Source: an uncultured Planctomycetales bacterium (GTDB lineage: Bacteria > Omnitrophota > Gorgyraeia > Zapsychrales > Fredricksoniimonadaceae). Taken from it: a stretch of DNA of 64,000 nt. Positions 4,646-28,294 of the stretch are shown one piece after another. The stretch lies in assembly GCA_964572155.1 (NCBI GenBank), contig CAZNDZ010000003.1:138224-202223 (forward strand), read 5' to 3'. The notes under the pieces are model-generated. The model had not been told where the DNA came from and searched no databases. It saw only the letters and a list, made by a program, of their open reading frames with translations. A program made the position numbers and the translations under genes. Position 1 is the stretch's first letter; each line of letters starts with the position of its first letter.

Positions 4646-4647
4646 GC

Positions 4648-5574: not shown

Positions 5575-5580
5575 AAAAAT

Positions 5581-7241: not shown

Positions 7242-9347
7242 CTAAAAGCTACGCAAGACAAATACAAACAATAAAGCAAAACCCAAAATAGAAAAAAATA
7301 TCATCAAAAACAACATATTATCAGAAAAACGTAGCTCATATTGATGCCACCCTTGCATCGGAGAAACCTGAAGCATTCCAAATGGACCTTCTTTTACAGA
7401 TTGTCCTATTTCTTGATGATCTATGTATAATCTCCAATCTTTATGATAATTCGAACTTATTAAAATTTCTTGTCCTTCAAAGTTGCCCTCCCATTTTAAC
7501 CGACTTGGCACATAGGATGAAAGCATCACATTCTTTAAGGGAACATCATTTAATGCATCAAACAACACTTGATCGGGATTGGTCTGTTGCTGAATATACT
7601 TTAATGCTGCCCTTGGAATGCTCATCACCCGAGAAGATGTGTTCTTCAAACGATACTGATACCACGTTTTTGTTAAAACCTTCTTATGAAGAATGCTGAA
7701 TTCTTCCGAATACTTCACTTGCTTCTCATCGACAGGGATAAAATCATCTAAATGCAGTGGTGTTTGGGAACGAATGAACTCAACATTATTAAATTTCAAC
7801 CACTTGATAACATTTGGACTCCCCATCTCATATGTCAACTCCATACGATTATTCCAGCTCCTAAATGAGCAGGGATCTTTATCCGTGAGGACATACTTAA
7901 TCCAATTTGCTGCGTCGTTACCATTATAAAAAACAGAAACGCCATCAAACGTCTCTTGATTCTTGATAGAAGCTTGAGCAGAAAAGAAGCGTAATGGGAA
8001 ACAGTTATCTGAAACAGTCACAACACGAGATGGAACAACGTGATGGTCATAGGTAAATGGATCTAAATGCAAATATCCATAAGGTGCTGTTTCTGAGATG
8101 TAATAAAAAATTTTAAAAGGTGCCAAGAAGATCAACGCCAACAAGACCAACTTTATGCCATTGGTTGCGTACTTTAGAAAATCAAATAAAATACAAAGAC
8201 TTGAAAAAATCCCTAAAAAAATCAAGTATTTACCGTCGATCAATGGTCGATCTGGCCATAATAGGCTAGCTGATAATACCGCACAAACAACGATTTTAAC
8301 CACCCCAATCATAATCTTAAGAGGCCGATTATCTAGCGGAACTCGCTCTATCAAATAGACCGCCAAGAGCATCCAGAGGAAATTAATGAAATAATACCCT
8401 CTGCCCCATGCAAACGAGAACTTACTTAAAAATGGAATACCTGATAAGAGCGTACTTTGCGAAACAATCACAGCAATCGATACAATCAAAGCCAATAAAA
8501 TGAGAGCTTTAATGTTTTTCCAAAAGTTAAATAAAATAATAATACATAAACAAGGCACAATGATCTGCGCATGTTTCAAATAACCCATCAATGATTTAAA
8601 GCTAAATACCGGCGGAAGCGCCTCCCATAATACCCTGTTAGAATGAGCCCACTGTGAAGCGAAAGCTAAAAGATTGGGTAGATATAAGACTGCAAAAACA
8701 CCCCAAAACATCATGGAGAAACTAATATTCTTAAATCTAGTGTTCTTGTCTGATAGAAAGAAAACAACGATGCCATGCATGAGTGGCAACATGGGGACTG
8801 TATAGGGAGGATACATGAGCAACAACGCAAGCATTAAGAAACTAATCCTAATTCTCCAGTCGATGGGATGCTTCCCATGCGTTGTTAATGCCACAACCAA
8901 CGGCAATAGTGGTACTAAGATGACAAATGGGTTCTCATTAAACCAATAGAACAACGATAAGCTAATCAAACTACCATATAGTGCGGTTAGATGCCTAAAC
9001 CCAAGAAAATTAAAACAAAACATGTACGTTCCCGTCAGGATAAACGCATCTAAAATGATTTGAAAAATCGTATAAGATAAAGACGCCGGTAAGAATGCTG
9101 ACAATAAACTACACAAATGCTGCGGATGAACTGTTTCTAAATATGCTGGCCACCCTCGCATGATCGAGGCATTCCATGCATTATCAAAAGGATGCCGCCA
9201 AAACTCTCCCCCATGTTGAAACTTTGCAATGAGGATATCTGCCACATCAATTAAACGTACAGAAGCTGCCTCGCCTAAAATCAATCGATCTAAATTAAGC
9301 GCAATGGCAACAACAATAAGACAAAAGAGGACTTTATGAAGTTTCAT
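7242..9347 (-). CDS. Large polytopic membrane protein with C-terminal soluble domain, GT-C-like (YfhO/PMT-like architecture), paralog A
   Basis: 701 aa; more than 10 hydrophobic helices followed by ~280-aa hydrophilic C-terminal domain; about 45 percent identical by eye to 11923-14025 over the full length. Confidence 0.55.
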   Translation of the reverse strand: MKLHKVLFCLIVVAIALNLDRLILGEAASVRLIDVADILIAKFQHGGEFWRHPFDNAWNASIMRGWPAYLETVHPQHLCSLLSAFLPASLSYTIFQIILDAFILTGTYMFCFNFLGFRHLTALYGSLISLSLFYWFNENPFVILVPLLPLVVALTTHGKHPIDWRIRISFLMLALLLMYPPYTVPMLPLMHGIVVFFLSDKNTRFKNISFSMMFWGVFAVLYLPNLLAFASQWAHSNRVLWEALPPVFSFKSLMGYLKHAQIIVPCLCIIILFNFWKNIKALILLALIVSIAVIVSQSTLLSGIPFLSKFSFAWGRGYYFINFLWMLLAVYLIERVPLDNRPLKIMIGVVKIVVCAVLSASLLWPDRPLIDGKYLIFLGIFSSLCILFDFLKYATNGIKLVLLALIFLAPFKIFYYISETAPYGYLHLDPFTYDHHVVPSRVVTVSDNCFPLRFFSAQASIKNQETFDGVSVFYNGNDAANWIKYVLTDKDPCSFRSWNNRMELTYEMGSPNVIKWLKFNNVEFIRSQTPLHLDDFIPVDEKQVKYSEEFSILHKKVLTKTWYQYRLKNTSSRVMSIPRAALKYIQQQTNPDQVLFDALNDVPLKNVMLSSYVPSRLKWEGNFEGQEILISSNYHKDWRLYIDHQEIGQSVKEGPFGMLQVSPMQGWHQYELRFSDNMLFLMIFFSILGFALLFVFVLRSF

Positions 9348-10240
9348 TAATTCAATGGTTTGCGATAAATGGCAAACAACTCGCCTGGCAAAGCCAGTGT
9401 CATCGAGAAATCAGGAGAAAAAAGTTTTTTAATGATAGGAAAAGTAAACTTACAAACCGCTGGATACCGCCCCATGGATAACATGATGGCATCGCGAGAC
9501 ATTTGAGCAGGATAAGTACCAATCCATGCTTTTTCATAACCAGCCTCGACAAAAAGCTTCGTTAACGATCGTTTGCTAAAATCTTGGATGTGCTGCCCTT
9601 GAATGTTCCACCATTTCTTACCTAAAATTTTCGAACACAAACCATCCACATCCCCTGTCCACATCGCAACAATACCACCTGGTTTAAGTAACCGGAACAT
9701 TTCACGCACTTCCAAACGAGGATTCTCAAAATGTTCAATGACCCCCCACAAGGTGATCACATCATATGTTGGGCCTTGATCAAATTGGGAAAGAAACTTG
9801 GAATGCACGGTAAAACCTTTTGAACGTGCTAAATCTGCAGACCATGTTGAAAGTTCTAAACCTTCTGGCTGATAAAACTCTTTGGCCACCGTCATAAAAT
9901 CACCTGTGGCACAACCAATGTCCAAGAGCTTGCCCTTAGGCACAAACGTTGTTAATGTTGCACATAACTTTTTTGAGGTGGCAAGACGAGACTTTTGATG
10001 GCGCAAATAAGCTTGATCTTCGACGGAAACATAATTCTTCCAAATATTGACTGGCAATGGTGTGCTATACACATGCGTACATCTAAGACAACGAACCGTT
10101 TGATAGCCTAACGAATGACTGGGAGTAAAGTTATAATCAAAATTTGGAGTTCTGCCATTCAATGTTTCTGGATATAGTACTTTATACTCCGTAGATTGAC
10201 ACACGCCACATGGAACATCTTTTAATTGATCAACGGTCAT
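9347..10240 (-). CDS. Class I SAM-dependent methyltransferase with N-terminal Cys4 zinc ribbon
   Basis: CGVCQS...CLRCTHV; LDIGCATGDF motif I; WGVIEH; LLKPGGIV. Confidence 0.75.
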   Translation of the reverse strand: MTVDQLKDVPCGVCQSTEYKVLYPETLNGRTPNFDYNFTPSHSLGYQTVRCLRCTHVYSTPLPVNIWKNYVSVEDQAYLRHQKSRLATSKKLCATLTTFVPKGKLLDIGCATGDFMTVAKEFYQPEGLELSTWSADLARSKGFTVHSKFLSQFDQGPTYDVITLWGVIEHFENPRLEVREMFRLLKPGGIVAMWTGDVDGLCSKILGKKWWNIQGQHIQDFSKRSLTKLFVEAGYEKAWIGTYPAQMSRDAIMLSMGRYPAVCKFTFPIIKKLFSPDFSMTLALPGELFAIYRKPLN

Positions 10241-11142
10241 ATGGCTTTCTTCCTTGCATAAACATCCCGAACTCCAACGGATAGACGCATGAAACGTTGT
10301 TGCAGCATGCTGTTTATTTTAGGGTGTTTGATCAATAACGATAACCCTGGAAATTTACCAAACAAATACGACAAGCTCACATAACGTTTATGACGTTGAT
10401 ACGCACAAATCTCAAAACCATGATTCTTTAAAATTCCCTCCAAGGTTTTGCGGGTAAAATATAACAAATGCATTTCCATCAAGAAAGGATATTTCTTGCG
10501 CATTAGTTTCGCAGACACGCTATCTAAAACCATGGTACTCACCCCAATCACCCCACCACTTTTAAGTAAATCCGCAGCTTTTTTGATCAGAGCATTTGGG
10601 TCGCTGACATGCTCGATCACATCCCACAACACAACTGCATCATACGTGCCATTTTTTTCTTTCGGTAATTCGTCAGTGGATGCCAACAATTTTAAACCAC
10701 GTTTTTGCAAAGCAATCTGTCTTGCCCACGCCGAGAATTCAGCACCTTCAACGTCCCAACCTTTTTTCTTTGCAATTTCTAAATAAACACCGGTATAACT
10801 GCCAATCTCAAAAAGCTTCCCTCTCTTTGGGCAAAATCGATTTAAGTCATCGATGGCCACGCCAAAGGTTTTAAGGCGCCCAGCCTCTTCCTGCAAATAT
10901 AGATTATCTTCAACTTGGGTATAAATATCTTGTAAGGCTTTTGGTGTGGGGCGTCGGCTGGAATACATCAAATGACAATCACTGCATTTTAAAATATCAG
11001 GGAATCGTCCATAGCCCGAGGAGGTGCATGCATAGACAGAAGCATCAACAGCTTTAGTAGTAACGGTACTAGTGCCCTTATAGTAAATGCTGCTTTTTTT
11101 TGAATGACACATCGGGCAATGATCAACCGTTACATAATCCAT
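10237..11142 (-). CDS. Class I SAM-dependent methyltransferase with N-terminal Cys4 zinc ribbon (tandem paralog)
   Basis: CPMCHS...CSDCHLM; FEIGSYTGVY motif I; WDVIEH; LLKSGGVIGVS. Confidence 0.75.
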   Translation of the reverse strand: MDYVTVDHCPMCHSKKSSIYYKGTSTVTTKAVDASVYACTSSGYGRFPDILKCSDCHLMYSSRRPTPKALQDIYTQVEDNLYLQEEAGRLKTFGVAIDDLNRFCPKRGKLFEIGSYTGVYLEIAKKKGWDVEGAEFSAWARQIALQKRGLKLLASTDELPKEKNGTYDAVVLWDVIEHVSDPNALIKKAADLLKSGGVIGVSTMVLDSVSAKLMRKKYPFLMEMHLLYFTRKTLEGILKNHGFEICAYQRHKRYVSLSYLFGKFPGLSLLIKHPKINSMLQQRFMRLSVGVRDVYARKKAI

Positions 11143-11150
11143 ACTTAAAC

Positions 11151-11939
11151 CTAAATGATGATTTTCTTTTTTAAGATTCTAACTTGATATGCCAAAACAA
11201 AAATACGCTCAAGGGCATGTAGAAATTCTTTAGGAGACACCTTAGTTTTCCCCATGGTGCGTTGATTAAAGATAATGGGAACCTCATCGATGCGACACTT
11301 ATTCATGGTTAACCACAATAAAAGCTCGACTAAGAAAATGTATTGTTTAGATTTGATATTCTTTTCAACATCTAAACTCTTTAAGACATTTGTTCGATAA
11401 CAACGAAATCCTGAGGTACAGTCCATGGCTTTAATGCCAAGCAATGTCTTGGCCAGCAAATTACCACCCTTGCTCATCCAACGACGCCATAATTCAAAAT
11501 TTGGGATTTCCCCACCTGGGCAATAGCGCGATCCAATGACCAAATCATTCACCGCGCTCTTCTTTATCATGTCATTGATCACAATGGGATCATGAGATAA
11601 ATCAGAGTCCATGGTGATCACAAAGGTAAAACCAGCCTCTAAAGCCAAAGAAAAACCGGCCAAATACGCAGAACCCAAACCTTGCTTGCCAGCACGTTCA
11701 AAAACAGTGATGCCTGAGATCTTGGTTGACTTTGCTGTGGCTGCCGCGGCAGTGCCGTCGGGAGAACCATCATCAATCACTAAAATCTGCATTTTATTCG
11801 AAACACGCGTGGTGATGCGATCAATCAATTCTGTAACATTCTCAACCTCATTGTAGGTTGGAATAATGACAAGATAATCGCTTCCAATGGCTTGTTTATG
11901 TGCTTTTAATTGAGTTAAAACATCAGACCGCTGCTTCAT
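11151..11939 (-). CDS. Polyprenyl-phosphate sugar synthase, GT2 Dpm1/GtrB/CsbB-like (dolichyl-phosphate mannose synthase family)
   Basis: 262 aa; IIPTYNEVEN, QILVIDDGSPDGT, MDSDLSHDP (DAD-like motif) all in the order seen in DPM1/Ppm1. Confidence 0.85.
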   Translation of the reverse strand: MKQRSDVLTQLKAHKQAIGSDYLVIIPTYNEVENVTELIDRITTRVSNKMQILVIDDGSPDGTAAAATAKSTKISGITVFERAGKQGLGSAYLAGFSLALEAGFTFVITMDSDLSHDPIVINDMIKKSAVNDLVIGSRYCPGGEIPNFELWRRWMSKGGNLLAKTLLGIKAMDCTSGFRCYRTNVLKSLDVEKNIKSKQYIFLVELLLWLTMNKCRIDEVPIIFNQRTMGKTKVSPKEFLHALERIFVLAYQVRILKKKIII

Positions 11940-14025
11940 GCAATGCCCCTTCTTTCTTACGCAATGTGTGAAGCAAAAATATTAGCACAAAAATTGCAAA
12001 AAACATACTGCAACATATATTTCGATAAATCTTCCCCAAAAAGACCAAATCATAGCGATGCACCCCTGCAACAGGCTTAATATGAATCATACCAAAAGGA
12101 CCCGACTTAAGCGCATCTTCCTTTAATACACCATCGACCTTAACCTTCCAATCTGGATGGTAATTGATGCTAGCCATCAAATCTTTACCCTCAAAATCCC
12201 CTTGCCATGACATATGACTTGGCGCATACGCATCAAGGCCAACGCGTTCGAACGCTAAAAACGTTTCTGGTTTTATGTCCTGACCTTGCGCCACGGCAAA
12301 AATGCGTGATGCGGGATCTTTGATCCTGTATAGAAAATGATCTGGTGTTTCTAAAAGATATGGGCTAAAAAATTTCGACGCTTTAGGAAAATCAACGCGC
12401 ACCTGCTCTTGCAAGATAAGGCTTGGATGTGTGATGGGCGCACTAGAACGGATAAAGGCTGTATTATTTAACCTAAGCCACCCTAGAATCGCATCTACAT
12501 TCTGATCCCACGTGGCCCGCACCAATTCGACGCGATTATTCCAACCTTTAAATGAACAATAATCTGCATCTTTGATCACATACGCATTCCAATTGGCGGC
12601 ATCGACCTTGTTGTAAAAAACGCTAACACCGTCGAAAGTCTCTTGCCCTCGCATTTGTGCTTGGGCGGGATAAAAGGCTGGATGCCAACATTCATCACTG
12701 AGTGTGACAACACGATAAGGATATAACGTGTGCTCATATTTGAATTGATCTTGATACAGATAGCCATACGGTACATCCTCATAATGCTTGACGCTATAAA
12801 TCTTGCAGGGCAATAAGAATATAAGGCATAAAATCAACATCTTCGTCGGTGTTTTTGCCTTCTCAAGAACATGAAAGGCAACATAACCTATGCTAAGCAA
12901 GCTAAAGACCACATACATCATGCCAACACTGCGGGAAATCCACTGGCTCTTTAATGCCAATACAGCGACGATTATCCAGCAGGCTACACCTGCTACAATT
13001 TTTTTGCTGATCTTTATTGGATGATGTTCAATTAAATAAATGATCAAAAACAGCATTAAGACAGAAGAATAAAAACTCAACCGCGACCATGCAAACGATG
13101 TGATATTAAATATTGGGATTGTTTTAAAGTAAGCACTTTGTGAAATAAAAATAAGGATGAGTACAAATATAAATAAAACCCAACGGGCAACGGGAATCTT
13201 ATAAAACTGAAATAATGCAACAACAGCAAGGCAGGGAAACCAAAAATTCATTTGCCGTATGCCATCCCACAAATTTTGCCATGATAGCACGCCACCCGCC
13301 GTAACCCATATAGTCCGATTTGAATGCCCCCATGTAAAGAAATATCCAATGAGATTGGGCCAATAAAAACAGGCATACACCGCCCAGAATCCACACCAAA
13401 ACATTATATTAATCCCACGTCGCTCTTTCGATGAAAGCAAGACAACAGCCAGCAAATGCACCATTGGCGCCATAGGTACAGTGTACGGCGGATACGAAAT
13501 AAACAGGCTTACCAATAACAATAAAAACCTAGTTATGCCCCCTATTGGTCGACGACCAATAGATGTTGCAGCTATAAATAACACGACTAGAAATGTTTGA
13601 GTAACAAATGGGTTCTCATTAAACCAATAAAACATGGATAAATGAAATAAACTCCCGTAAATCGCTGACAGATGCCTGTAACCTAGAAAATTAAAGAAAA
13701 ATACATACGTTCCAGCGAGGATTAAGAACTCAATTAAGATCTGGAAAATTGTAAATGCCAACGAGGCTGGCATAAAAACTGAAAGGATGGAACATAAATG
13801 CTGAGGCTGGACACTGCCAACATGGGCTGGGGCGCCCCGCAGGATTGAGGCATCCCACTGATTATCACTGGGGTTTTTCCAAAACTTGGCCCCTTGATCA
13901 AACTTTGGCACATACATATCAGCAACATCGGTGCGTTTTACTGGACCATGTTCTCCCAGCCATAATCGTGGCACATTAAGAAGCACCACGATTAAGAAAA
14001 ACATCACAAAAATCTTACGCATCAA
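11923..14025 (-). CDS. Large polytopic membrane protein with C-terminal soluble domain, GT-C-like, paralog B
   Basis: 700 aa; colinear with 7242-9347 (shared blocks HLCSxLSxFxPASLxxTIFQI, YWFNENPFV, ETFDGVSVFYN). Confidence 0.55.
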   Translation of the reverse strand: MMRKIFVMFFLIVVLLNVPRLWLGEHGPVKRTDVADMYVPKFDQGAKFWKNPSDNQWDASILRGAPAHVGSVQPQHLCSILSVFMPASLAFTIFQILIEFLILAGTYVFFFNFLGYRHLSAIYGSLFHLSMFYWFNENPFVTQTFLVVLFIAATSIGRRPIGGITRFLLLLVSLFISYPPYTVPMAPMVHLLAVVLLSSKERRGINIMFWCGFWAVYACFYWPNLIGYFFTWGHSNRTIWVTAGGVLSWQNLWDGIRQMNFWFPCLAVVALFQFYKIPVARWVLFIFVLILIFISQSAYFKTIPIFNITSFAWSRLSFYSSVLMLFLIIYLIEHHPIKISKKIVAGVACWIIVAVLALKSQWISRSVGMMYVVFSLLSIGYVAFHVLEKAKTPTKMLILCLIFLLPCKIYSVKHYEDVPYGYLYQDQFKYEHTLYPYRVVTLSDECWHPAFYPAQAQMRGQETFDGVSVFYNKVDAANWNAYVIKDADYCSFKGWNNRVELVRATWDQNVDAILGWLRLNNTAFIRSSAPITHPSLILQEQVRVDFPKASKFFSPYLLETPDHFLYRIKDPASRIFAVAQGQDIKPETFLAFERVGLDAYAPSHMSWQGDFEGKDLMASINYHPDWKVKVDGVLKEDALKSGPFGMIHIKPVAGVHRYDLVFLGKIYRNICCSMFFAIFVLIFLLHTLRKKEGALHEAAV

Positions 14026-14950: not shown

Positions 14951-15067
14951 GAATTTTATATCCTTGTGTTTAAATGAACACTTGATTATAAAACCACATC
15001 TGTCTCTGTCAAGCAAATGTGACTAGCTATTGAATTATCCAACATAAAACGTTACTATACGTGAAAT

Positions 15068-16603: not shown

Positions 16604-16605
16604 TC

Positions 16606-20642: not shown

Positions 20643-22288
20643 GCCAGCCAAGCAAATGCAGAAATAAAGATCATCACCTTCAGTCTCATGGAAACTGGCA
20701 CAACTTGTTTGAAATGGATATACCGATCAAATTCCTGTGCATCAGTCTTTGGCCATAAGGGCCAAGAGTTAGACAAATAATATCCACCTTTACCTTCTGC
20801 CCCAAACATTTTACGCACATCATGCATATTATAATATCCCAATGCTGCTTCTTGTGAGACATCGCCACCGCCTGTCCAAGAACTCTTAATTGATATCTCC
20901 TTTGGATATTCATTGCCATAACCAAAAATACATCCAAGGGCGCACGACGTATAATGCTCTTTAAGCGGTGTTGCCGGCTGTGGCAACTCTTGGGTGAATT
21001 CTTTAACTGCAGGAAATAACGGCCACGTAAAATAATTGCGGCCAGCATATGCAATTTCAAACATATTGGTCAACATTAGTAACACCGCTAGGACCTTAAT
21101 GAAGTGATGTTTACTCTTAAATAAAAACTCGTAGCCTTTAGCAATGAAAACACATAAAACAAAAACCAAAACAATGTTGCCCCGCCAATGCCATGTGATG
21201 GATTTTAAGACAGGGAAAATCATCCTCACAAGATCAGCCACATGCGTAGTGCGAATAAATAGTAAATGGCCAATTGCTGCTAACACTAGAGCTAAAAATA
21301 TTTTATTCTTCCATAAATCTTTTGATCTAAATATACCTATCAATAGTGCTGGAATCGCTGCTAATCCAATAAAGTTCGTATAATCTTGCATAAAACCCAA
21401 CATGCCATGCCCAGCTTTGGTCACAACAATATTGGCATTAAAAAATGACTGCACTAACATCTCTATCAAATACCGCGTATTTCCTATGATCTGATAATGG
21501 GGGGCAACACCTCCCCCTGCTCTTGGAAAATTCAACATCTGGTATTCATAGACAGCCCCTAATCGAAATAAACTTAAAAGAATGGCAATCGCCCCCAAAC
21601 CTATGATAATACTCATTTTTACAAACAACGCATTGGGGGTTTTCCACGAAGAAATACATTCGACAATCAACCGAAAAACAAAGACAGGCAAAAATACTTG
21701 AATCCAGATATAACCACTATTGATGATTAAAAAGAAAAGACCAATCAACCCTAACAACGTTAATCCATAAGACTTATTGTACTTAACAGGCAATTCTAAG
21801 ATCTTCTCCGTCAAGATCATGATCCACGGAATATAGGCAACGCCCTGCATCCATAATCCTCCCATGCTCATGTGATACGCCCATGAGCCGGAAAAGACTG
21901 TTAAAGCGCCTGCAATGATCCGTGCATTGATGTCTGTTATTCCCAACCGTTTAAACCAAACAAAAACACCAAAACCAAAAAGAATGGTCATAAAAAGATT
22001 CCCAACCTTACATGCCCAGACAGCATTAGGAATAACAAATGCAAAAAGAGAATAAATGCTTAAGACAATGCTTTGCGCATCTGCTAAAAATAACCAGCCT
22101 CCACAACGTGCTGGCGTTATATATGGCAAAGACAATTCACTAGCCAAATGCTTCTTTAATAAGGCAAACTGCCAAACAATTGACGTGGTATAATCGCCGC
22201 TTTGAATATTCCCACCAATAAAGAAAAATAGAAGCAAAACAATTGCAGATAACACTAACAAGAAAGTTATAACACGTTGTGATTTCAT
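20546..22288 (-). CDS. Polytopic membrane protein, putative GT-C-like glycosyltransferase
   Basis: 580 aa; TM-rich; 3-prime end overlaps convergent gene by 97 nt. Confidence 0.45.
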   Translation of the reverse strand: MKSQRVITFLLVLSAIVLLLFFFIGGNIQSGDYTTSIVWQFALLKKHLASELSLPYITPARCGGWLFLADAQSIVLSIYSLFAFVIPNAVWACKVGNLFMTILFGFGVFVWFKRLGITDINARIIAGALTVFSGSWAYHMSMGGLWMQGVAYIPWIMILTEKILELPVKYNKSYGLTLLGLIGLFFLIINSGYIWIQVFLPVFVFRLIVECISSWKTPNALFVKMSIIIGLGAIAILLSLFRLGAVYEYQMLNFPRAGGGVAPHYQIIGNTRYLIEMLVQSFFNANIVVTKAGHGMLGFMQDYTNFIGLAAIPALLIGIFRSKDLWKNKIFLALVLAAIGHLLFIRTTHVADLVRMIFPVLKSITWHWRGNIVLVFVLCVFIAKGYEFLFKSKHHFIKVLAVLLMLTNMFEIAYAGRNYFTWPLFPAVKEFTQELPQPATPLKEHYTSCALGCIFGYGNEYPKEISIKSSWTGGGDVSQEAALGYYNMHDVRKMFGAEGKGGYYLSNSWPLWPKTDAQEFDRYIHFKQVVPVSMRLKVMIFISAFAWLAYLLCWLCLWNDAWIMKKIRTTHAIKPKKAIK

Positions 22289-22295
22289 ATTCTCC

Positions 22296-23453
22296 TTACC
22301 GTGGAAGCAATACCCATAATTTAAGCACTCTAAAAATTAAAAGTGCCGTTATGAAAATCAAAATCCCTTGTTTTAGAACCTTGTGTTTAGCTAGAACAAC
22401 CATCAGATATGACGCAAAACACGTCATCATGATGCCAATGGGTGTGATGAGCATGAAATAGCGATTAGACACCTCAAAACCCTCACCATTTGACGATTGC
22501 CCAGTCTTTAATTTCATGTAAATCGCAGCACTACCCGCTAAAATAAGCGCACCAAAAGTGATCACGTTGACAAACAGCTTCTGATGTTGCGTAGATACTG
22601 GATGAAACCAACGTTTTAATGTTTTACTTCTCGCTGCCATGATCAATATTCCCGCGATGACTATCAATGCCATGCGATCGATCGCCAAATTAGCTCCAAA
22701 CAACTTCATCATCCCATTCTTAATAAAGAACGCATACTTTGGCGCATGCCAGAAATAAAAAATACTTATAAGCATCGGGATAACTAATAAGAGTAGATGA
22801 TCTTTGATTTTACGCGCGCCATGTTTCCAGAGAATGATGCTCGTCGCTACATTGGTGATGATGCTTAAGAAAACACTTAAAGATAACAAGGTTTGTGTGA
22901 TGATTAAGCCCAACATCAAACGCGCTTGGCGTTTTTGTTTTGCTTCTAGCCAAAAAAATAACAAGACCATTTGCATGGCGCTTAAAAAGAACCATAACGC
23001 GTATGGCCTTGCCGTGCAGGCATAGGACCAAACCATAAACGATGATAAACTAACAAGCAACGCATAAAACCCTGCGATGAACCCAAGGCGTAGCGTGACA
23101 TAAAAAAAGATGAGCGCAACACCGGCGGCCATACACAGCAATGGCAACATACGCAGAACCATCATTGAGGGTGGATGTTGATACGACCACTGACCTTTTT
23201 TCCAAGCTTCAGGTGTTTGATAGCCTATTACATCTTGATAAACTTTTTGTAAACTATAAAACAACGGCGCATTGTTACCTTCATCCACATGCCCTGCCCA
23301 AATCTTTTGCCATGTCATCCCTTGTACACTTGAAACTTGGCTATAAAATTCATCATTATCCAAAGGTAAGCTTTGAGCGCGCTTCATAAACGCAGAACTA
23401 ATCCCTAAAAAAATAAAGATGGCGCAAATAATGGCAATGACGTTTTTTGACAT
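22296..23453 (-). CDS. PMT_2/ArnT-like GT-C family membrane glycosyltransferase (DE-motif in first loop)
   Basis: 385 aa; LPLDNDEFYS first-loop motif resembling GT39/GT83 DE motif; tandem paralog of next gene. Confidence 0.6.
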   Translation of the reverse strand: MSKNVIAIICAIFIFLGISSAFMKRAQSLPLDNDEFYSQVSSVQGMTWQKIWAGHVDEGNNAPLFYSLQKVYQDVIGYQTPEAWKKGQWSYQHPPSMMVLRMLPLLCMAAGVALIFFYVTLRLGFIAGFYALLVSLSSFMVWSYACTARPYALWFFLSAMQMVLLFFWLEAKQKRQARLMLGLIITQTLLSLSVFLSIITNVATSIILWKHGARKIKDHLLLLVIPMLISIFYFWHAPKYAFFIKNGMMKLFGANLAIDRMALIVIAGILIMAARSKTLKRWFHPVSTQHQKLFVNVITFGALILAGSAAIYMKLKTGQSSNGEGFEVSNRYFMLITPIGIMMTCFASYLMVVLAKHKVLKQGILIFITALLIFRVLKLWVLLPR

Positions 23454-23457
23454 ACCG

Positions 23458-24582
23458 TTAACCTAAATGAGACCTGATTGCCGAGGGAACAATCTTAAAG
23501 AACCTCGGGATAAATAATGCAGCGACAAAGACCCATAAGGCATACTGAGCAAACCGCCAACGGGACAAAGAGTGATGCAATGTAACACACGCCCAGACAC
23601 TGGCTATCACACCAATGGGCATCAAATAAATAAAATACCGACTGCTTACAGGAAAACCTTCCTTGGTCTTAGCGCCCATCTTAAACATTGTGATTAATGC
23701 TGCTGTCATTAATAAAGCACCTAACAAATATTTAAAATATGGCAGCACATCTTTGATGGCACTTTGCTTTTTTTGCCACACAGATATAGTCCAGCAAACC
23801 AAAAACGCGATGAAAATATAGAATCGCTCCCTGCCTATATTATCTCGGATGAGTTGTTCCGGGGTTAAATCAAAATAAAAAGAATACCGAGGGGCTTGCG
23901 TATAATAATACAAAATGGCAATGACCGGCAAAACCATCGCCATGCAATATTGTTTAAAATGCTTCACCCGATACAACCCCATGATCACGGTGGTTGCAGC
24001 AATCAACCCCAAACTAAAAATTGCTGTCAGGCTTAAGAAAATGTTTGTAGCAATCAATCGCTTTAAACCCACTTGACCATTTGATTCAATGACCTTAACC
24101 AAACACAGCGACTGAGCTGTGGTTAAGAAAACCAACATCGCATACGGCCTTGCCTCAGCCCAAAATGGCCAAAGGATATAGGTCGACACATAAACAAACA
24201 CGCTTAAAAGTCCGACTGCCCAATGAAATCTTGCTGAAAAGAAATGAAAGATCAGTGCGATCGACAATGACATAAACAAAACAGGATTGATGCGCAATAC
24301 CAAGCGATTAGCCAAGTCTACATCATCCCATTTTCCGTTAATCCATGAGGAAGGGACATCATAAGGCGTGATATCAATCAATATCTTCTGAAAGGTATAA
24401 AATAATGGGGAATTATTCCCCTCGGGGATCTTGCCTGAAAACATTTTAGTATATGAAATATTTTCAATGCTAGAAACTGTAGAAAAATACTCATCATTAG
24501 CCATGGGTTTATGTGCTGCCAGCATGAATCCCACAGCAAGCATGACGAAAAACACAACAGATGCTAAGAAATATCTCTTCAT
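23458..24582 (-). CDS. PMT_2/ArnT-like GT-C family membrane glycosyltransferase (DE-motif in first loop)
   Basis: 374 aa; PMANDEYFS motif; colinear with 22296-23453 (shared PLFY, ARPYA blocks). Confidence 0.6.
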   Translation of the reverse strand: MKRYFLASVVFFVMLAVGFMLAAHKPMANDEYFSTVSSIENISYTKMFSGKIPEGNNSPLFYTFQKILIDITPYDVPSSWINGKWDDVDLANRLVLRINPVLFMSLSIALIFHFFSARFHWAVGLLSVFVYVSTYILWPFWAEARPYAMLVFLTTAQSLCLVKVIESNGQVGLKRLIATNIFLSLTAIFSLGLIAATTVIMGLYRVKHFKQYCMAMVLPVIAILYYYTQAPRYSFYFDLTPEQLIRDNIGRERFYIFIAFLVCWTISVWQKKQSAIKDVLPYFKYLLGALLMTAALITMFKMGAKTKEGFPVSSRYFIYLMPIGVIASVWACVTLHHSLSRWRFAQYALWVFVAALFIPRFFKIVPSAIRSHLG

Positions 24583-24585
24583 AAA

Positions 24586-25821
24586 TTAGATGAACTTGAT
24601 CTTCTTCATAGCAAAACCACACATCTTAAACAACAATAAACCATGACGAAAACGTTGGATCTGCGTGGTGCCATACATCCGACTTTTATAACGGATGGGC
24701 ACCTCAACAACTTTTAAATTCAATTTAACCGCACCAAAGATGAGGTCAAAATCACCGAATGGATCAAAATCACCAAAATAATGACGATTAGCAACAAGCT
24801 CTTGATAATGATGTTTCAAGATGACCTTGGTACCGCACAAGGTGTCTTTAAAACGTTGACCTAATAACCACGTAAAGAAAATCCCAAAGAATTTGTTGGC
24901 CAATAAATTGAGGAAACGCATGGCTTCATCTTCCATCGGGTAAATCAACCGGCAACCATTAATAAATTCACCCTTACCACTGACAATGGCCTCATAAAAC
25001 TTTGGCATATCTTCCGGCGGGGTTGTTAAATCTGCATCTAAGATCATCAAAACATCACAGGTGGCTCTACTAAAACCAGCTCTCACCGCATCGCCTTTCC
25101 CCACACCCTCTTGTTTAAATAACTTGATATCCCGATCAGGATAAGCCTTCATGACGCGCTCTACTTCTTCATAGGTGCCGTCTTTTGAATGTCCCTCGAC
25201 AAAAATAAATTCTTGATGTGTCCCAAATTTTGGTGTGCGGGTGATGGCTTGTTCAATATTACCGCGTTCATTACGGCAAGGTACTAATATCGTCACAGAC
25301 AACGCTTGTGGTTCTTTAAAGATGGGTCTTGCGATAATAAAATGATTAAGGGTTAACGCATTAAAGATGGGTAACTTTGCTATATATCGATTGATGAGAT
25401 AACTCAAACCCCAGATCTGAACAGGAAATAGAATAGCCCGCTCTTGATGGATAGGATCAAAATCTGCTAAATTTAAGAAATTATTAATATCCGCCCACGT
25501 TAGCCAATTTTGGGTTTTCTGCTTTGCTTTTAATCCTAAGTTCTCTCCCAATTTTAAAATATATTGCCATAAATAACTGTAATACTCAACGATTAGGCGA
25601 GTATCACGATGACAAAACGGACGCAATTGTTGTAAGTATTGTTGCACATCAGATTGGCCACCCAATGTTCCAGCGAGCACAATATAATCATATTTAACAC
25701 TTTGTGCTGTGCTCGGTAAAACCCCATCAGGCCCTATGTTCAAAACTTTTTTATTCTCAGGAATAAAATAACGATATTGTTTATCCCTTAAACCAAAATA
25801 ATATTTTTTCCAAGAACTCAT
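24586..25821 (-). CDS. Two-domain protein: N-terminal degenerate class-I methyltransferase-like domain fused to GT2 Dpm1/GtrB-like polyprenyl-phosphate glycosyltransferase domain
   Basis: 411 aa; N-part VLNIGPDG, YDYIVLAG; C-part ILVPCRNE, LDADLTTPPEDM, hydrophobic FFGIFFTWLLG. Confidence 0.7.
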   Translation of the reverse strand: MSSWKKYYFGLRDKQYRYFIPENKKVLNIGPDGVLPSTAQSVKYDYIVLAGTLGGQSDVQQYLQQLRPFCHRDTRLIVEYYSYLWQYILKLGENLGLKAKQKTQNWLTWADINNFLNLADFDPIHQERAILFPVQIWGLSYLINRYIAKLPIFNALTLNHFIIARPIFKEPQALSVTILVPCRNERGNIEQAITRTPKFGTHQEFIFVEGHSKDGTYEEVERVMKAYPDRDIKLFKQEGVGKGDAVRAGFSRATCDVLMILDADLTTPPEDMPKFYEAIVSGKGEFINGCRLIYPMEDEAMRFLNLLANKFFGIFFTWLLGQRFKDTLCGTKVILKHHYQELVANRHYFGDFDPFGDFDLIFGAVKLNLKVVEVPIRYKSRMYGTTQIQRFRHGLLLFKMCGFAMKKIKFI

Positions 25822-25825
25822 CGTG

Positions 25826-26845
25826 TCATTTCCTTGATCCTAAAAGCAGCATTGTTAATATTTTATTCTTTCGAATCAACACGTTCGAAAGCGCCATCAA
25901 ACCAACGATAAAAAGCACTGCCATAATCGTTACATAAAAATAGTTAAATGGGATCTGCCATTTGATGATCAAACGCCCATAAAGACCTTCGAGCAAGAAA
26001 CGTTGGATTAAATAAATATCCAATGAATACATGCCAACTTTTTCTAAAAAATTCAACGAACTCGCCTTGGAAAGCTGCCAAGATATGCCCATCACAACGA
26101 CGATGCCTAGAAATCCCATCAAATAACGGTACAACAAACGCACAACATCGCCAAAATTTGCAAACATCATCTTATTGACGTAAATATAGTCAGTCGTATT
26201 CCAAAACTGTTGCAAGACCACAAACAAGATAACGCATCCTACAAAACCAAACTTCACATATGGTGCTTCCCAATTCATCTTTAGACGATACACAAAGAAA
26301 CCACACGCAAAGAACACATAAAACCATTGAATATAATATAGCCCAACATATTGATTTATGGGAAAAAATAGGATGAAGAAACCTGCAAACACATTGCCCA
26401 ATGCAAGGGCTGCCACCCCAAAAAGCGTCCATAAAAACCATATGGCTGGATTAAGTATCAATTGATCCCAAAAAACCCAAGGCATTGTCCGCCAATCCCA
26501 TGCCTGATGGTCTAAACCATCTAACGCAATCGTGATCAAAACACCTAAAATCCCCCAACATAAAAATGGGATCATCAAACCTCTAGCGCGAGATTGAAAG
26601 ACCTTCCATTTAGAACTTCTAGAGAGGCTGCTTGCCAACAAATAACCACTGATAAACACAAACAGTGGCATATGAAACATGTAAATGATTCTAAATACTG
26701 GATTTAAGAAAAAATCTTGCCCCAAGGCTACCATGTGCCGTTGGATCAAATGGCCATAAATAACTAAAAATATGCCAATGCCTTTGGCAACGTTAAGCGT
26801 TCTATTTCTATTTTCCAAAGTTCTTTCTAATTCCGTTCTTGTCAT
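25826..26845 (-). CDS. Acyltransferase family 3 (OafA/YrhL-like) membrane O-acyltransferase
   Basis: 339 aa; about 10 TM helices; conserved His in IYGHLIQ and FFxxSG-type motif PLFVFISGYLL. Confidence 0.8.
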   Translation of the reverse strand: MTRTELERTLENRNRTLNVAKGIGIFLVIYGHLIQRHMVALGQDFFLNPVFRIIYMFHMPLFVFISGYLLASSLSRSSKWKVFQSRARGLMIPFLCWGILGVLITIALDGLDHQAWDWRTMPWVFWDQLILNPAIWFLWTLFGVAALALGNVFAGFFILFFPINQYVGLYYIQWFYVFFACGFFVYRLKMNWEAPYVKFGFVGCVILFVVLQQFWNTTDYIYVNKMMFANFGDVVRLLYRYLMGFLGIVVVMGISWQLSKASSLNFLEKVGMYSLDIYLIQRFLLEGLYGRLIIKWQIPFNYFYVTIMAVLFIVGLMALSNVLIRKNKILTMLLLGSRK

Positions 26846-26857
26846 GGCACATCAATA

Positions 26858-28294
26858 TTGATAAGCTGTACAATATTAATTTATATTCACCATAACTTCA
26901 AATTAAAAATTACCGCAATGAAGGATTCTTCTCGCATGATTTGGTTAAGCATTGCCCTCTCTTGGATCTGGTGGATATACTTAGGCACACATGTCCACAT
27001 GGTCTTGGCACAAGATGCCCTTGTATATGAAACGTTGGGTCGCAATATCGCTGATCAAGGATTTTTCCCAAATTTCTTTGTCCAAGGACCCAATCGAGAA
27101 CCCATTTACCCCTTGATGGTTGCTTTTGCCATGAAAATGGCATTTTGGTACCGCATCCCCTTTGAAAACATCATGATCACGTTTGGCATTGTGATTTTGG
27201 GACTTAATCAGCTCTGTCTTTTACGATTACTGCAAATTTTAAAAATTCGCACTTCGATTATAGCATTATCATTACTATATCTAGGCTTCTCACCGTCGAT
27301 CAATAATGCGGCATTAAGTTTATACTCAGAAATATCTGCCATCACCTTTATCTTACCCCTTTTACTCATCACGTATTACGTCTATGAAAACGTCCGAAAC
27401 GATGCAAAAATCCCTAGCATGATCTCTGCTTTAGGCATTGGGGTTGCGGTTAATTATTTAACATTGGTCAAAGCCCCATTTGAAATCATCACGCCTGTAT
27501 TCTTAAGCGCGCTTTATGTTTTGCTATGGCGTGCATACCCAACAAAAGTACGCTTGATTAGCATATGTGCTGCGATCAGTTTTTCTATTTTCATTGGCTT
27601 TATTCATCATTACAAAAGTTTGAATCAATATTACAACGGGCAATATGCCCTAACAAATCGTGCATCATGGGCTTTATACGGCAACACAGCCCGTCGGATG
27701 GAGCCGCTTAATGGCACCCGTTTATTAGGCGCCATGGCCTATGTGCCTGGGGATGGCGTTTGCAAACGTTTTATCGACGCTGATACCTGTGATTTCTGGT
27801 CTTTTCGCATGTCTGATGAAATAGGCATGACAAAGATCAGCGCCTTACAAAAATTCAACAAAGATGCCGATGCAACCAATCAAGCCTTAGTACGTGATGC
27901 CGCGCACATGGCACTATCTAATCCACTGCAATATGCGTTCCTTACATGCTTAGAAGGAACTAAGATGTTCTTCTGGGAGTCTACACAAATTGGTTTTGTG
28001 AACTATCCGACGTGGTTAAATCACATTTATAACAATGAGATGTTTAAAGATGCGTTGCGTCTAGTAGTAGCGCTTGTCACCATCTTTGCTGTTGGATTTG
28101 TTTGGGTACTTAGCTTTAGAAAAACTACTGAACCTGTTGTGCGCCTCATGGGCTTACTCATTTTTTTGTGGATAGGAACATATGCCTTCTTTTTTATCGT
28201 CACACGTTATGCTTTGCCAATTGCCTCTTTATTTATAATTGCCATCGCATATACGGCTAATATTTTGTATAATAACCGCCATGCCAAACATTAA
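26858..28294 (+). CDS. ArnT/PMT_2-like GT-C membrane glycosyltransferase; track start is TTG, likely true start at downstream Met (about 26918)
   Basis: Loop motif QDALVYETLGRNIADQG resembling ArnT DExRYAExxR motif; about 12 TM helices. Confidence 0.55.
   Translation: MISCTILIYIHHNFKLKITAMKDSSRMIWLSIALSWIWWIYLGTHVHMVLAQDALVYETLGRNIADQGFFPNFFVQGPNREPIYPLMVAFAMKMAFWYRIPFENIMITFGIVILGLNQLCLLRLLQILKIRTSIIALSLLYLGFSPSINNAALSLYSEISAITFILPLLLITYYVYENVRNDAKIPSMISALGIGVAVNYLTLVKAPFEIITPVFLSALYVLLWRAYPTKVRLISICAAISFSIFIGFIHHYKSLNQYYNGQYALTNRASWALYGNTARRMEPLNGTRLLGAMAYVPGDGVCKRFIDADTCDFWSFRMSDEIGMTKISALQKFNKDADATNQALVRDAAHMALSNPLQYAFLTCLEGTKMFFWESTQIGFVNYPTWLNHIYNNEMFKDALRLVVALVTIFAVGFVWVLSFRKTTEPVVRLMGLLIFLWIGTYAFFFIVTRYALPIASLFIIAIAYTANILYNNRHAKH

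Follow-up and report, generated by a model that had tools for sequence, protein, structure and literature searches.

A probable multi-component polyprenyl-phosphate-sugar transmembrane glycosylation system in DNA most likely from an uncultured Omnitrophota bacterium

Gene content and membrane topology

The window analysed was the whole 64-kb stretch of DNA. Its region 7242-28294 (~21 kb) encodes nine polytopic membrane proteins (A to I). Interleaved with them are genes for one SDR, one AT3 protein and two each of GT2 enzymes and Cys4 methyltransferases. These and the adjoining features are as follows.

52-6609, minus strand: flanking sugar genes, nonulosonic-acid/6-deoxy-hexosamine synthesis
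6596-7162, minus strand: MarR_EPS-like regulator, weak profile matches; recurs beside the modules
7242-9347, minus strand: A, 701 aa, polytopic GT-C, DUF6044/YfhO-related by sequence
9347-10240, minus strand: MT1, second Cys4 zinc-ribbon methyltransferase
10237-11142, minus strand: MT2, Cys4 zinc-ribbon and class I SAM methyltransferase
11151-11939, minus strand: GT2a, 262 aa, TM-less Dpm1/DPMS-type GT2
11923-14025, minus strand: B, 700 aa, predicted GT-C, A paralog, DUF6044/YfhO-related
14015-14950, minus strand: SDR, predicted Rmd-like extended SDR; the mechanical ORF reaches 15016
14985-15012, minus strand: promoter match TTGACA-16-TATAAT, lying in the divergent SDR-C gap
15068-16603, plus strand: C, 511 aa, polytopic, probable PMT_2-type GT-C
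16606-18441, plus strand: D, 611 aa, predicted PMT_2-family GT-C
18408-20642, plus strand: E, 744 aa, predicted YfhO/DUF6044-like GT-C
20546-22288, minus strand: F, 580 aa, polytopic, probable distant YfhO/DUF6044 relative
22296-23453, minus strand: G, 385 aa, minimal GT-C, uncatalogued family
23458-24582, minus strand: H, 374 aa, GT-C, G paralog
24586-25821, minus strand: GT2b, 411 aa, degenerate methyltransferase domain fused to a Dpm1/AglJ-type GT2
25826-26845, minus strand: AT3, AT3-only membrane O-acyltransferase
26918-28294, plus strand: I, polytopic, uncatalogued family (probable start; longer ORF from 26858)

The earlier note had described nine large multi-TM proteins of 374-744 aa. 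Every ORF was found, and all nine were polytopic by hydropathy, with 8-12 predicted TM helices each. The acidic motifs that it had quoted were present as NDEFYS in G, NDEYFS in H and QDALVYETLGRN in I. A short N-terminal tail with Lys/Arg precedes TM1 in 9/9 proteins, so that the positive-inside rule predicts a periplasmic acidic loop, the orientation that the note had wished to see checked. In D, three TM helices precede the motif, which places it on the same side as the others. Across the 64-kb window, searches turned up neither a GtrA-like nor a Wzx-like protein; the absence of a GtrA-like flippase had been remarked on before, and it counts against the reading preferred below. Cytoplasmic GT2, GT4 and GT9 enzymes are encoded elsewhere within the window.

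GT2 enzymes and accompanying modification genes

Both GT2 proteins matched Glycos_transf_2 (Pfam) and were nearest to Dol-P-mannose synthase and ArnC, in line with the original call of two such genes. Against the PDB, GT2a matched PfDPMS best (5mlz; E 1.1e-28, residues 23-249), followed by ArnC. Its top NCBIfam matches were AglJ, Dol-P-hexose transferase, PpgS, ArnC and PgfS, all under cut-offs. The PfDPMS residues E12, D39, D89, D91, H94, R117, G122, R131, S135, R202 and K208 are retained, and with them both the Dol-P-phosphate triad of DPMS and the guanine-binding Asp. The donor is probably a GDP-sugar. The sugar is probably not mannose, since Q93 is replaced by S and K178 by I, and the neighbouring SDR is Rmd-like.

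GT2b scored 99.5 bits against AglJ (NCBIfam, under cut-off), with PDB matches to PfDPMS (3e-17), ArnC (4e-10) and GtrB (4e-4), and is 61-87% identical across Omnitrophota loci. Compared with 465-aa homologs, its N-terminal methyltransferase-derived domain has lost SAM motif I through a deletion of 37 aa. In the pairwise alignment, GT2b has no equivalents of R131 and S135, and hydropathy revealed no TM helices in either GT2. Both observations count against the preferred reading, as do the NCBIfam scores of the system components, all far under equivalog cut-offs. The previous description as Dpm1/GtrB/CsbB-like was correct for the Dpm1-type homology but not for the C-terminal TM helices found in GtrB, CsbB and ArnC. 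The catalytic domain of mycobacterial Ppm1 and human DPM1 are TM-less too.

The SDR, first gene of the module 1 minus-strand operon, matched GDP_Man_Dehyd/Epimerase (Pfam), which agrees with its annotation as GDP-sugar reductase-like. The nearest PDB entries were 2pk3, a GDP-6-deoxy-D-lyxo-4-hexulose reductase (E 3.9e-64), and 6x3b, a GDP-6-deoxy-D-mannose reductase (7e-41), and by homology the enzyme is Rmd-like, resembling GDP-4-keto-6-deoxyhexose reductases. The start is most likely ATG 14950 (311 aa), because TTGACA-16-TATAAT (15012-14985) falls inside the longer ORF; on the identical contig L001 the protein is also called as 311 aa. This element is a perfect sigma-70-type consensus match only, and the total number of such sites in the region was not above that in the shuffles. 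No GDP-mannose 4,6-dehydratase feeding the SDR was identified in the window, a further point against the preferred reading.

The two tandem Zn-ribbon methyltransferases were confirmed, both being Methyltransf_23 proteins with two CxxC pairs (C11/C14/C51/C54 in MT1; C9/C12/C53/C56 in MT2). MT2 (91.6 bits) is the conserved methyltransferase of module 1, 52-82% identical to those of loci L002, L003 and L008, with a weak PDB match to the sugar 3-C-methyltransferase 4rv9. A second methyltransferase at the MT1 position is absent from the same three loci; MT1 (81.4 bits, 29% identical to MT2) is an extra paralog in the present genome. MT1-like genes come after F-like genes in L076 and L077. The supposed OafA acyltransferase matched Acyl_transf_3 (79.4 bits) but is AT3-only, without the SGNH domain of OafA. 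Its best NCBIfam match was the fucose acetyltransferase NolL (67 bits, cut-off 425), and in L003, L006, L007, L011 and L012 the gene keeps its place between I and GT2b.

The polytopic membrane proteins

The GT-C assignment, initially extended to all nine proteins, held for A and G by fold and for B, D, E and H; C and F are probable members, whereas I has no detectable GT-C relative. In Pfam, D exceeded the PMT_2 cut-off and E that of YfhO, but A, B, C, F and I fell under cut-off or had no match. In the structure comparison proposed at the outset, both A and G showed the GT-C fold.

A and B are paralogs (40% identity over full length). The A-family proteins of L002 and L003 are nearer to B (66% and 58%) than to A (40% and 42%), and that of L008 is nearer to A (47%) than to B (40%). 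The best structural match of A was the mycobacterial arabinofuranosyltransferase AftD, soluble domain included (491 residues aligned), and its invariant first-loop Asp is D34. B consists of a TM bundle, a periplasmic beta-rich domain and a C-terminal TM anchor, and its Pfam search gave no match; A and B themselves lie under the Pfam YfhO/DUF6044 thresholds. E matched Pfam YfhO at 37.8 bits (cut-off 28.5), confined to the C-terminal 70 residues, and aligned with the DUF6044/YfhO profile over 651 columns (hhalign, 99.3%, E 4e-20). Homology to YfhO/DUF6044 holds for A, B and E. E is conserved divergently beside module 1, with relatives in L002 (59%) and L008 (41%).

F resembles YfhO in architecture, with a TM bundle followed by a soluble domain and a C-terminal TM; it had no match in the Pfam search and only 5 relatives among 5.8e9 clusters. 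Its family profile aligned with DUF6044/YfhO at 87% (hhalign, E 4e-6, 325 columns) and with the A family at 72.6%, which suggests a probable GT-C distantly related to YfhO/DUF6044. That these comparisons reached only 87% and 73% was counted against the preferred reading. F-like genes adjoin a methyltransferase and a GT2 in L076.

C scored 26.0 bits against PMT_2 (cut-off 26.1; E 1.2e-5, residues 59-194), consistent with a probable PMT_2-type GT-C. A PDB sequence search gave no match, and the single homolog (L042, 32%) is itself without a Pfam match; the latter and the score under cut-off were likewise counted against the preferred reading. D, at 26.2 bits, can be placed in the PMT_2 family. 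D-like proteins scored 32.0 (L058) and 20.4 bits (L017) over the same region, and that of L058 also matched PMT at 20.5 bits.

G and H are paralogs (29% identity over 377 residues, E 9e-54) with common invariant motifs D-E, E-G, RPY and RYF. D34/E35 is invariant across 16 sequences of their family, and the H+G tandem is kept in L006, L007, L008, L009, L011 and L016. They constitute a minimal GT-C type from an uncatalogued family. The fold of G resembles Pmt4, ALG12 and ALG9. PMT/Pgf-like GT-Cs could be envisaged to attach lipid-linked monosaccharides to secreted or surface proteins, such as pili or the giant surface proteins that characterise Omnitrophota. The Pgf system of Streptococcus mutans (PgfS, PgfM1, PgfE, PgfM2) similarly combines a GT2, a YfhO-like GT-C, an SDR and a second membrane GT, although the present SDR resembles a reductase and not an epimerase. 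Protein O-glycosylation is nevertheless very unlikely. PgfS and PgfM1 were matched with tiny scores (43 and 27.5 bits; cut-offs 500 and 1400), ALG12, ALG9, ArnT and AftB match G nearly as well as Pmt4, leaving the fold silent on the acceptor, G and H have no luminal MIR-like domain, and the modules are embedded in clusters of polysaccharide type that also carry nonulosonic-acid genes and a MarR_EPS-like regulator.

I, transcribed divergently from module 2, has its probable start at ATG 26918 (458 aa, versus 478 aa from 26858). It is possibly a GT-C, as suggested by motif and synteny. No Pfam match was obtained for any of 48 family members, and I had no PDB match and no hhalign link to any GT-C, which counts against the preferred reading. 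The family could instead represent a flippase, a Wzy/WaaL-like polymerase/ligase or a transporter, possibly along with C and F, giving a true count of six to seven GT-Cs; this is doubtful but a real contender. The missing links to GT-C would fit, as would the lack of another flippase in the window and the constant position of I beside GT2b (GT2b-like genes in at least 15 loci). However, D53 just after TM1 is invariant across 48-49 sequences, and S157-E158 and, before TM2, R80-E81-P82 are invariant too. There is also a loop of 150 aa in which two Cys are invariant, along with numerous invariant polar residues. Such features look more like a periplasmic active site than like a flippase. One member also carries a C-terminal TPR fusion, as do many PMT_2-type GT-Cs, F aligns with the YfhO TM core, and the PMT_2 match of C argues in the same direction.

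Recurring modules and the proposed system

Two modules are found repeatedly across Omnitrophota MAGs and metagenomes. M1 comprises the SDR, A/B, GT2a and MT together with E, and M2 comprises I, AT3, MT-GT2b, H and G. Their usual neighbours are the MarR_EPS-like regulator and nonulosonic-acid genes. The regulator scored 50.8 bits against TIGR04176 MarR_EPS (cut-off 88), with weak MarR/HTH Pfam matches. Small genes (186-191 aa) at its position in L002, L005 and L006, likened by position and size, gave no Pfam match, a faint HTH_24, and a faint MarR plus weak HTH_24, respectively. The genes at 52-6609 encode PseB (491.9 bits, over the 407.75 equivalog cut-off), an RmlD-like reductase, a methyltransferase, a NeuB/PseI-like synthase (NeuB, 266 bits), two GNATs and a DUF4910 protein.

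What the analysis establishes is the gene content and its synteny, the homology links, the GT-C fold in A and G and the active-site residues shared with DPMS; these uphold the earlier reading of periplasmic-face lipid-linked-sugar glycosylation. The identity of the donor, the target of methylation, flipping, the acceptor and the role of the GT-Cs in decorating or building the glycan are inferred. The locus probably encodes an expanded multi-component polyprenyl-phosphate-monosaccharide transmembrane glycosylation system of the GtrB/CsbB-YfhO/ArnC-ArnT kind. On the cytoplasmic face, the two Dpm1-type GT2 enzymes, soluble or peripherally bound, would charge the lipid carrier. GT2a would use a GDP-6-deoxy-sugar that the Rmd-like 4-ketoreductase completes and MT2/MT1 probably methylate, and GT2b would supply the second of the lipid-linked sugars. 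Once a flippase encoded outside the window had translocated them, eight or nine GT-Cs would pass the sugars to periplasmic acceptors via the invariant first-periplasmic-loop Asp: A, B, E and probably F (YfhO/DUF6044), D and probably C (PMT_2), the new minimal G and H, and possibly I. The product would be O-acetylated by the AT3 protein. As acceptor, a surface polysaccharide of O-antigen or capsule type is most likely; its nonulosonic-acid/6-deoxy-hexosamine genes and MarR_EPS-like regulator would be those that flank the modules.

Alternatively, the nine GT-Cs, each with its own linkage, might assemble an entire glycan polymer in the periplasm out of only two lipid-linked monosaccharide donors, as in mycobacterial arabinan/mannan synthesis by DPA/PPM donors and the Emb, Aft and Mpt GT-Cs. 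The ratio of nine GT-Cs to two donor synthases, the AftD match of A, the TM-less GT2a and the failure to detect Wzx, Wzy or an ABC exporter in the window are consistent with this, yet it appears unlikely. Related loci contain only 2-5 GT-Cs, some with Wzx (L004, L005), which fits a decorated Wzx-dependent repeat unit; the window also holds the cytoplasmic GTs, and there was no sign of a primer or acceptor lipid.

The preferred transmembrane glycosylation system was compared with known ones. CsbB/GtcA/YfhO and GtlA/GtcA/GtlB are Firmicutes multi-component transmembrane systems for teichoic acid glycosylation (PMC8035078). As in these, a predicted GT-A/GT2 polyprenyl-P-monosaccharide synthase lies beside YfhO-type or PMT_2-type GT-Cs, A, B and E being the YfhO/DUF6044 homologs; in contrast, the present gene set is diderm-type (GT9 heptosyltransferase, TonB-dependent receptor), with no nearby GtrA/GtcA, TM-less GT2s and nine GT-C candidates rather than one.

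GtrA/GtrB/GtrX of Shigella/Salmonella phages, ArnC/ArnT, RgtE/RgtA-D and FlmF/FlmK also pair a Dpm1/ArnC-class Und-P-sugar synthase with a periplasmic GT-C that acts on LPS, the first for O-antigen glucosylation and the others for lipid A/core modification. Of the relatives with solved structures, ArnC and GtrB ranked among the best for the GT2s, and ArnT was one of the fold matches. Identity is low, however, the GT-C families differ, GtrA is missing, methyltransferases and AT3 are integrated, and in place of UDP-Glc or UDP-Ara4FN a GDP-6-deoxy-sugar is the probable donor.

With DPMS (PfDPMS, human DPM1, Ppm1), GT2a shares catalytic and Dol-P-binding residues and, with human DPM1, the lack of TM helices. 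As with the PMT/ALG/Aft/Emb GT-Cs, which G (Pmt4, ALG12, ALG9) and A (AftD, AftA) resemble, one lipid-monosaccharide donor would feed several GT-Cs; the present system is bacterial and non-actinobacterial, however, without the eukaryotic/mycobacterial MIR or carbohydrate-binding modules. The Haloferax volcanii Agl pathway comprises the Dol-P-hexose synthases AglJ/AglD, AglP, a SAM methyltransferase acting on the lipid-linked sugar, and the GT-C AglS, which adds a Dol-P-borne sugar outside the cell. AglJ was the best NCBIfam match of both GT2s (58 and 99.5 bits, cut-off 325), but Agl performs archaeal N-glycosylation of the S-layer protein, and no oligosaccharyltransferase (AglB/PglB) was found here. 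Surface glycosylation from the outer side of the inner membrane is a known principle; what is new here is the dense array and its partly uncatalogued GT-C families.

Organization of the locus and its surroundings

All of the ORFs listed in the earlier note were present. The genes of the locus fall into four apparent transcription blocks:

Block 1, minus strand
14015-14950 (-), Rmd-like reductase (SDR)
11923-14025 (-), polytopic membrane protein B
11151-11939 (-), Dpm1-like GT2 enzyme (GT2a)
10237-11142 (-), Cys4 methyltransferase (MT2)
9347-10240 (-), Cys4 methyltransferase (MT1)
7242-9347 (-), polytopic membrane protein A, a paralog of B

Block 2, plus strand
15068-16603 (+), polytopic membrane protein C
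16606-18441 (+), polytopic membrane protein D
18408-20642 (+), polytopic membrane protein E

Block 3, minus strand
25826-26845 (-), O-acyltransferase (AT3)
24586-25821 (-), Dpm1-like GT2 enzyme (GT2b)
23458-24582 (-), polytopic membrane protein H
22296-23453 (-), polytopic membrane protein G, a paralog of H
20546-22288 (-), polytopic membrane protein F

Block 4, plus strand
26858-28294 (+), polytopic membrane protein I, followed by metF

A perfect sigma-70 consensus (TTGACA-16-TATAAT) was found at 15012-14985 (-), in the divergent gap between SDR and C. This match and the gene call on L001, an identical contig, both point to 14950 as the start of the SDR (311 aa). A 10/12 promoter-like site at 26858-26887 (+) covers the annotated TTG start of I, for which ATG 26918, giving 458 aa, is the likely start. 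Both promoter-like sites argue for the shorter gene models. E and F are convergent with 3' ends overlapping by 97 bp (20546-20642), and the C-terminal tail of F is longer than those of its homologs.

Block 1 is followed by an 80-bp gap and then by a MarR_EPS-like gene (6596-7162, minus strand) and PseB/NeuB-type sugar genes that continue to base 52:

52-6609 (-), PseB equivalog (491.9 bits), RmlD-like reductase, 377-aa methyltransferase, NeuB/PseI-like synthase, two GNATs and a DUF4910/DUF2172 protein

Since PseC, PseF and NeuA were not detected within 52-6609, the nonulosonic-acid pathway looks incomplete or unusual there; two DegT-family aminotransferases are encoded elsewhere in the window. 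The window has a second envelope-sugar region:

40165-63854, MGDG-synthase-like GT28, HAD phosphatase, two GT2, two DegT aminotransferases and a GT9 heptosyltransferase
same region, MBOAT with GDSL and TPR-GDSL proteins (AlgI/J-like O-acetylation set), and a GT4
same region, NTP-transferase with GHMP kinase (GDP-heptose-like activation), and a B12-radical SAM enzyme
same region, two epimerases and a split TPP enzyme
same region, 545-aa FAD_binding_4 protein between 6-TM and 7-TM proteins

The sole Rfam match in the window, an AdoCbl-II (cobalamin) riboswitch at 31164-31251 (-), scored 40.4 bits (gathering score 36.5) and is outside the locus. It lies directly upstream of a TonB-dependent receptor gene (29143-31137, minus strand) and shares bases with the 3' end of an ORF that encodes a DUF6580 membrane protein (31191-31709). 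A mobile or phage origin of the locus was rejected, because GC content is flat across the window, no tRNA is present in it and the housekeeping genes MTHFR, GAPDH, PriA and Fmt flank the locus.

Fold and family of the nine membrane proteins

Hydropathy analysis predicted 8-12 TM segments in each of the nine large proteins. A common architecture was seen in A, B, E and F, in which the first ~420 residues form a TM bundle that is followed by a soluble domain and then by one TM helix at the C terminus. In A and G, structural similarity to solved GT-Cs was found over the conserved N-terminal TM module, and for the G/H family a confident structural model gave strong fold matches to GT-C. Conserved acidic residues were present in the first extracytoplasmic loop, the side of the loop being predicted; the invariant residues were D34 in the A family, D34-E35 in G/H, D53 in I and G31-D32 in F. 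The basic N-terminal tails predict an N-in topology for the nine proteins, in line with the periplasmic placement of these motifs that the earlier note had proposed, with the membrane side inferred from those tails. From their genomic association with Dpm1-type GT2 genes, the GT-Cs may use polyprenyl-phosphate-sugar donors.

Pfam and NCBIfam were nearly silent on these proteins, and only D (PMT_2) and E (YfhO) passed a Pfam cut-off. D scored 26.2 bits against PMT_2 (PF13231; GT39/GT83-like), 0.1 bit above the gathering score of 26.1 bits. Its assignment is supported by D-like proteins that match PMT_2 over the same region, at 32.0 bits in the related locus L058 and 20.4 bits in L017; the L058 protein matches PMT too. 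C fell 0.1 bit short of the PMT_2 cut-off (26.0 bits), and its only homolog found, in L042, matched neither PMT_2 nor any other Pfam family. E passed the Pfam YfhO model (37.8 against 28.5) across its last 70 residues only, and hhalign aligned it to the DUF6044/YfhO profile at 99.3% (E 4e-20, 651 columns). No Pfam match was obtained for A, B, F, G, H or I, and A, B and F did not reach the gathering score of YfhO (PF09586) or DUF6044 (PF19510).

In profile comparisons, the A family matched DUF6044/YfhO proteins at 100%, a value that is partly due to the construction of the profiles. The profile of the F family, which has five known members, matched DUF6044/YfhO at 87% (E 4e-6) across the TM core and the A family at 72.6%; from these profile scores F is probably a YfhO/DUF6044 relative. 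Single C, D and F sequences gave nothing against the other families by hhalign. Searches of PDB sequences with A, G/H, I, YfhO/DUF6044, C and D, as profiles or single sequences, returned no meaningful match, which means that neither a close relative nor any YfhO has a solved structure. A/B link YfhO/DUF6044 with an AftD-like architecture.

The top fold matches of A and G included no transporter, Wzy/WaaL or SEDS protein, and an identity of this kind was rejected for both. Of the nine or so GT-Cs originally counted, six (A, B, E, G, H and D) are well supported, two (C and F) are probable and I is a possible member.

The I family was assembled from genome and metagenome loci, with 9 and then 48 members. 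It has an invariant Asp directly after TM1, R-E-P ahead of TM2, S-E, and a 150-residue loop carrying two invariant Cys. Neither the 9-member nor the 48-member family matched Pfam, I had no PDB sequence match, and in hhalign comparisons with C, with D and with the profiles of A, F, G/H and YfhO the value was at most 9%. One member, L058:7956-9983, is a 675-aa protein with a C-terminal TPR-repeat extension, and beside it are a second I-like gene and a D-like PMT_2 gene.

Probable lipid-linked-sugar synthases and Rmd-like reductase

The closest solved relative of GT2a is the Pyrococcus Dol-P-mannose synthase (PfDPMS), which matched over residues 23-249 at E 1.1e-28; three ArnC structures came next. 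Roles have been assigned in PfDPMS to the DXD, to the triad for the Dol-P acceptor phosphate R117/R131/S135 and to the A-loop residues R202/K208 (PMC5526996). GT2a keeps E12 as E31, the guanine-binding D39 as D57, the DXD D89/D91 as D111/D113, H94 as H116, G122 as G143, the triad as R138/R152/S156 and the A-loop pair as R227/K233, so that the DXD, phosphate triad and A-loop of a DPMS are all present; Q93 is replaced by S and K178 by I. The conservation of these site residues suggests a GDP-sugar as the donor of GT2a.

GT2b matched DPMS at 3e-17, then ArnC and GtrB. Among the PfDPMS residues tested, it conserves only E185 (E12), D262/D264 (DXD) and R291 (R117), with N in place of both R131 and S135 in a lower-confidence stretch of the alignment. 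The polyprenyl-phosphate acceptor features raised in the earlier note were seen in GT2a. For both, the best NCBIfam named-member match was AglJ (58 bits for GT2a and 99.5 bits for GT2b, against a cut-off of 325), and neither reached an equivalog score for AglJ, ArnC, PpgS, PgfS or Dol-P-hexose transferase. The two enzymes fall in the Dpm1/DPMS class, and neither is an ortholog of a named enzyme. Hydropathy predicted no TM helix in either GT2, and the locus has no small gene for a membrane partner. Neither form of DPMS-type membrane attachment was seen, be it C-terminal TM helices as in GtrB, ArnC and PfDPMS or a membrane partner as for human DPM1.

The first 170 residues of GT2b are a methyltransferase domain. 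In the window (24586-25821, minus strand) this domain has a 37-residue deletion that includes SAM motif I; the deletion is common to the closest MAG locus (L007:2549-3775), and the domain is intact in L003, L005 and L006. The window has two stand-alone Cys4 methyltransferases, MT1 being extra, compared with one in related loci. That one of these compensates for the loss of the GT2b domain is speculation.

For the SDR, the closest solved relative was Rmd (2pk3), a GDP-6-deoxy-D-lyxo-4-hexulose reductase, aligned over essentially the full length (E 3.9e-64, residues 16-328 of 333). The next PDB match was a GDP-6-deoxy-D-mannose reductase (6x3b), GalE-type enzymes followed at ~1e-31, and no NCBIfam equivalog was reached. 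The AT3 protein consists of the AT3 domain only, and its best named match, a weak one, was the fucose acetyltransferase NolL.

Conservation and proposed glycosylation route

Species-representative genome loci with G/H relatives were all (20/20) from Candidatus Omnitrophota MAGs or TPA MAGs named 'uncultured Planctomycetales', which suggests that the window itself is from Omnitrophota. A tblastn comparison of the window's proteins with all retrieved related loci defined two modules. The first (M1: divergently transcribed E, SDR, A/B, GT2a and MT) is present in L002, L003 and L008, the A-like gene of L008 having been found by a G/H scan. The second (M2: divergently transcribed I, AT3, MT-GT2b, H and G) is present in L006, L007, L011 and L012, and some twelve further loci have part of it. 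The GT2 genes are the most conserved (GT2b 61-87%, GT2a 66-84%). The GT-Cs diverge fast (G/H 28-48%, I 26-45%), with values of up to 66% for the A/B-like proteins of M1. Both modules adjoin a small regulator-sized gene in the MarR_EPS-like position and nonulosonic-acid genes, and in two loci they are near a Wzx. No other locus was as expanded as the window, in which A and B form a duplicated pair, a second MT is present and C, D and F are additional.

In other loci, an MT1-like methyltransferase and a GT2 come after the F-like genes. In contexts that are not Omnitrophota-like, two F-family genes stand in tandem (L074:8355-12211; P0153), and one of them has an Imm_superinfect (superinfection immunity) domain fused at its N terminus; the pair adjoins two-component and TonB-receptor genes. 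A Y1_Tnp (IS200-like) transposase fragment lies between the A-like gene and GT2a in L003 (L003:4478-4837), and IS110 and Y1 transposase genes flank the F-like genes of L076 and L077. Together these hint at module mobility.

The scheme of multi-component transmembrane glycosylation has three parts: a GT-A that makes a C55-P-sugar, a flippase for its translocation and a GT-C for transfer of the sugar on the outside (PMC8035078). The parts of the locus, as observed in their folds, homology, active-site conservation and synteny, fit this scheme. In the reading that we favor, the Rmd-like SDR, with or without the methyltransferases, would provide a GDP-6-deoxy-sugar, which GT2a would load onto polyprenyl phosphate while GT2b would make a second lipid-linked sugar. 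A flippase would translocate both, the GT-Cs would transfer the two sugars onto a surface polymer, and AT3 would acetylate the product. In this route we infer the identity of the sugar, the site of methylation, the acceptor and the choice between decoration and polymerization.

The route has points against it, namely that no flippase was detected in the window, that GT2a and GT2b lack a membrane anchor, that no GDP-mannose 4,6-dehydratase (GMD) was identified in the window and that the acceptor site of GT2b appears not to be conserved. The lack of a GtrA-like flippase, already remarked in the earlier note, extends to the whole 64-kb window, and in or near the locus no GtrA, Wzx or small 3-4-TM ORF was found. 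The sole small multi-TM ORF in the window is the DUF6580 gene, and a three-component Gtr-type cassette, with a GtrA-family flippase beside GT2 and GT-C, was not found in the window. Two other unassigned polytopic proteins are encoded in the window, and each may be the flippase that is otherwise missing, a polymerase or one more GT-C:

36045-37553 (+), 502-aa polytopic protein, ~9 TM, weak DUF2062 match
49948-51531 (-), 527-aa polytopic protein, no family

A more far-reaching reading, which we consider unlikely, is that the ultra-small, possibly predatory Omnitrophota go beyond decoration and construct a whole surface glycan of 6-deoxy-sugar, methylated and acetylated, on the periplasmic face alone. 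The two TM-less Dpm1-type synthases would feed as many as nine GT-Cs, a set that resembles those of actinobacteria. At least three GT-C families (A/B, G/H, I and perhaps F) would be lineage-restricted inventions with no Pfam model or solved relative, and translocation would be by an as-yet-unknown flippase or by the GT-Cs or I themselves.

The mechanism proposed here is the known lipid-linked monosaccharide route, and no principle is overturned. The locus shares its working logic with GtrB/GtrX, CsbB/YfhO, ArnC/ArnT, Ppm1/PMT, Pgf and the archaeal AglJ/AglS, but with all equivalog scores far below the cut-offs it is orthologous to none of these. What is new is the density of GT-C genes, the lack of TM helices in DPMS-like synthases of a bacterium whose gene set is of diderm type, their coupling to a GDP-6-deoxy-sugar reductase and methyltransferases, and GT-C families that are invisible to Pfam. 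In the literature, no description of such a system in Omnitrophota and no mention of DUF6044 were found, and the main genomic surveys of Omnitrophota consulted were silent on surface glycosylation.

The locus adds G/H and A/B to the GT-C families, both missed by sequence libraries. It also contains a bacterial homolog of Dpm1 that has no TM helix, keeps the DPMS active site intact and is coupled genetically to the reductase and methyltransferases. The cell envelope of Omnitrophota is essentially undescribed, and the locus provides for it a set of genes that is concrete, conserved and open to testing. A host, a prey cell or a phage meets the surface glycans of a bacterium first. Where an attached or predatory way of life is suspected, as it is here, the surface glycan is a plausible determinant of partner recognition.
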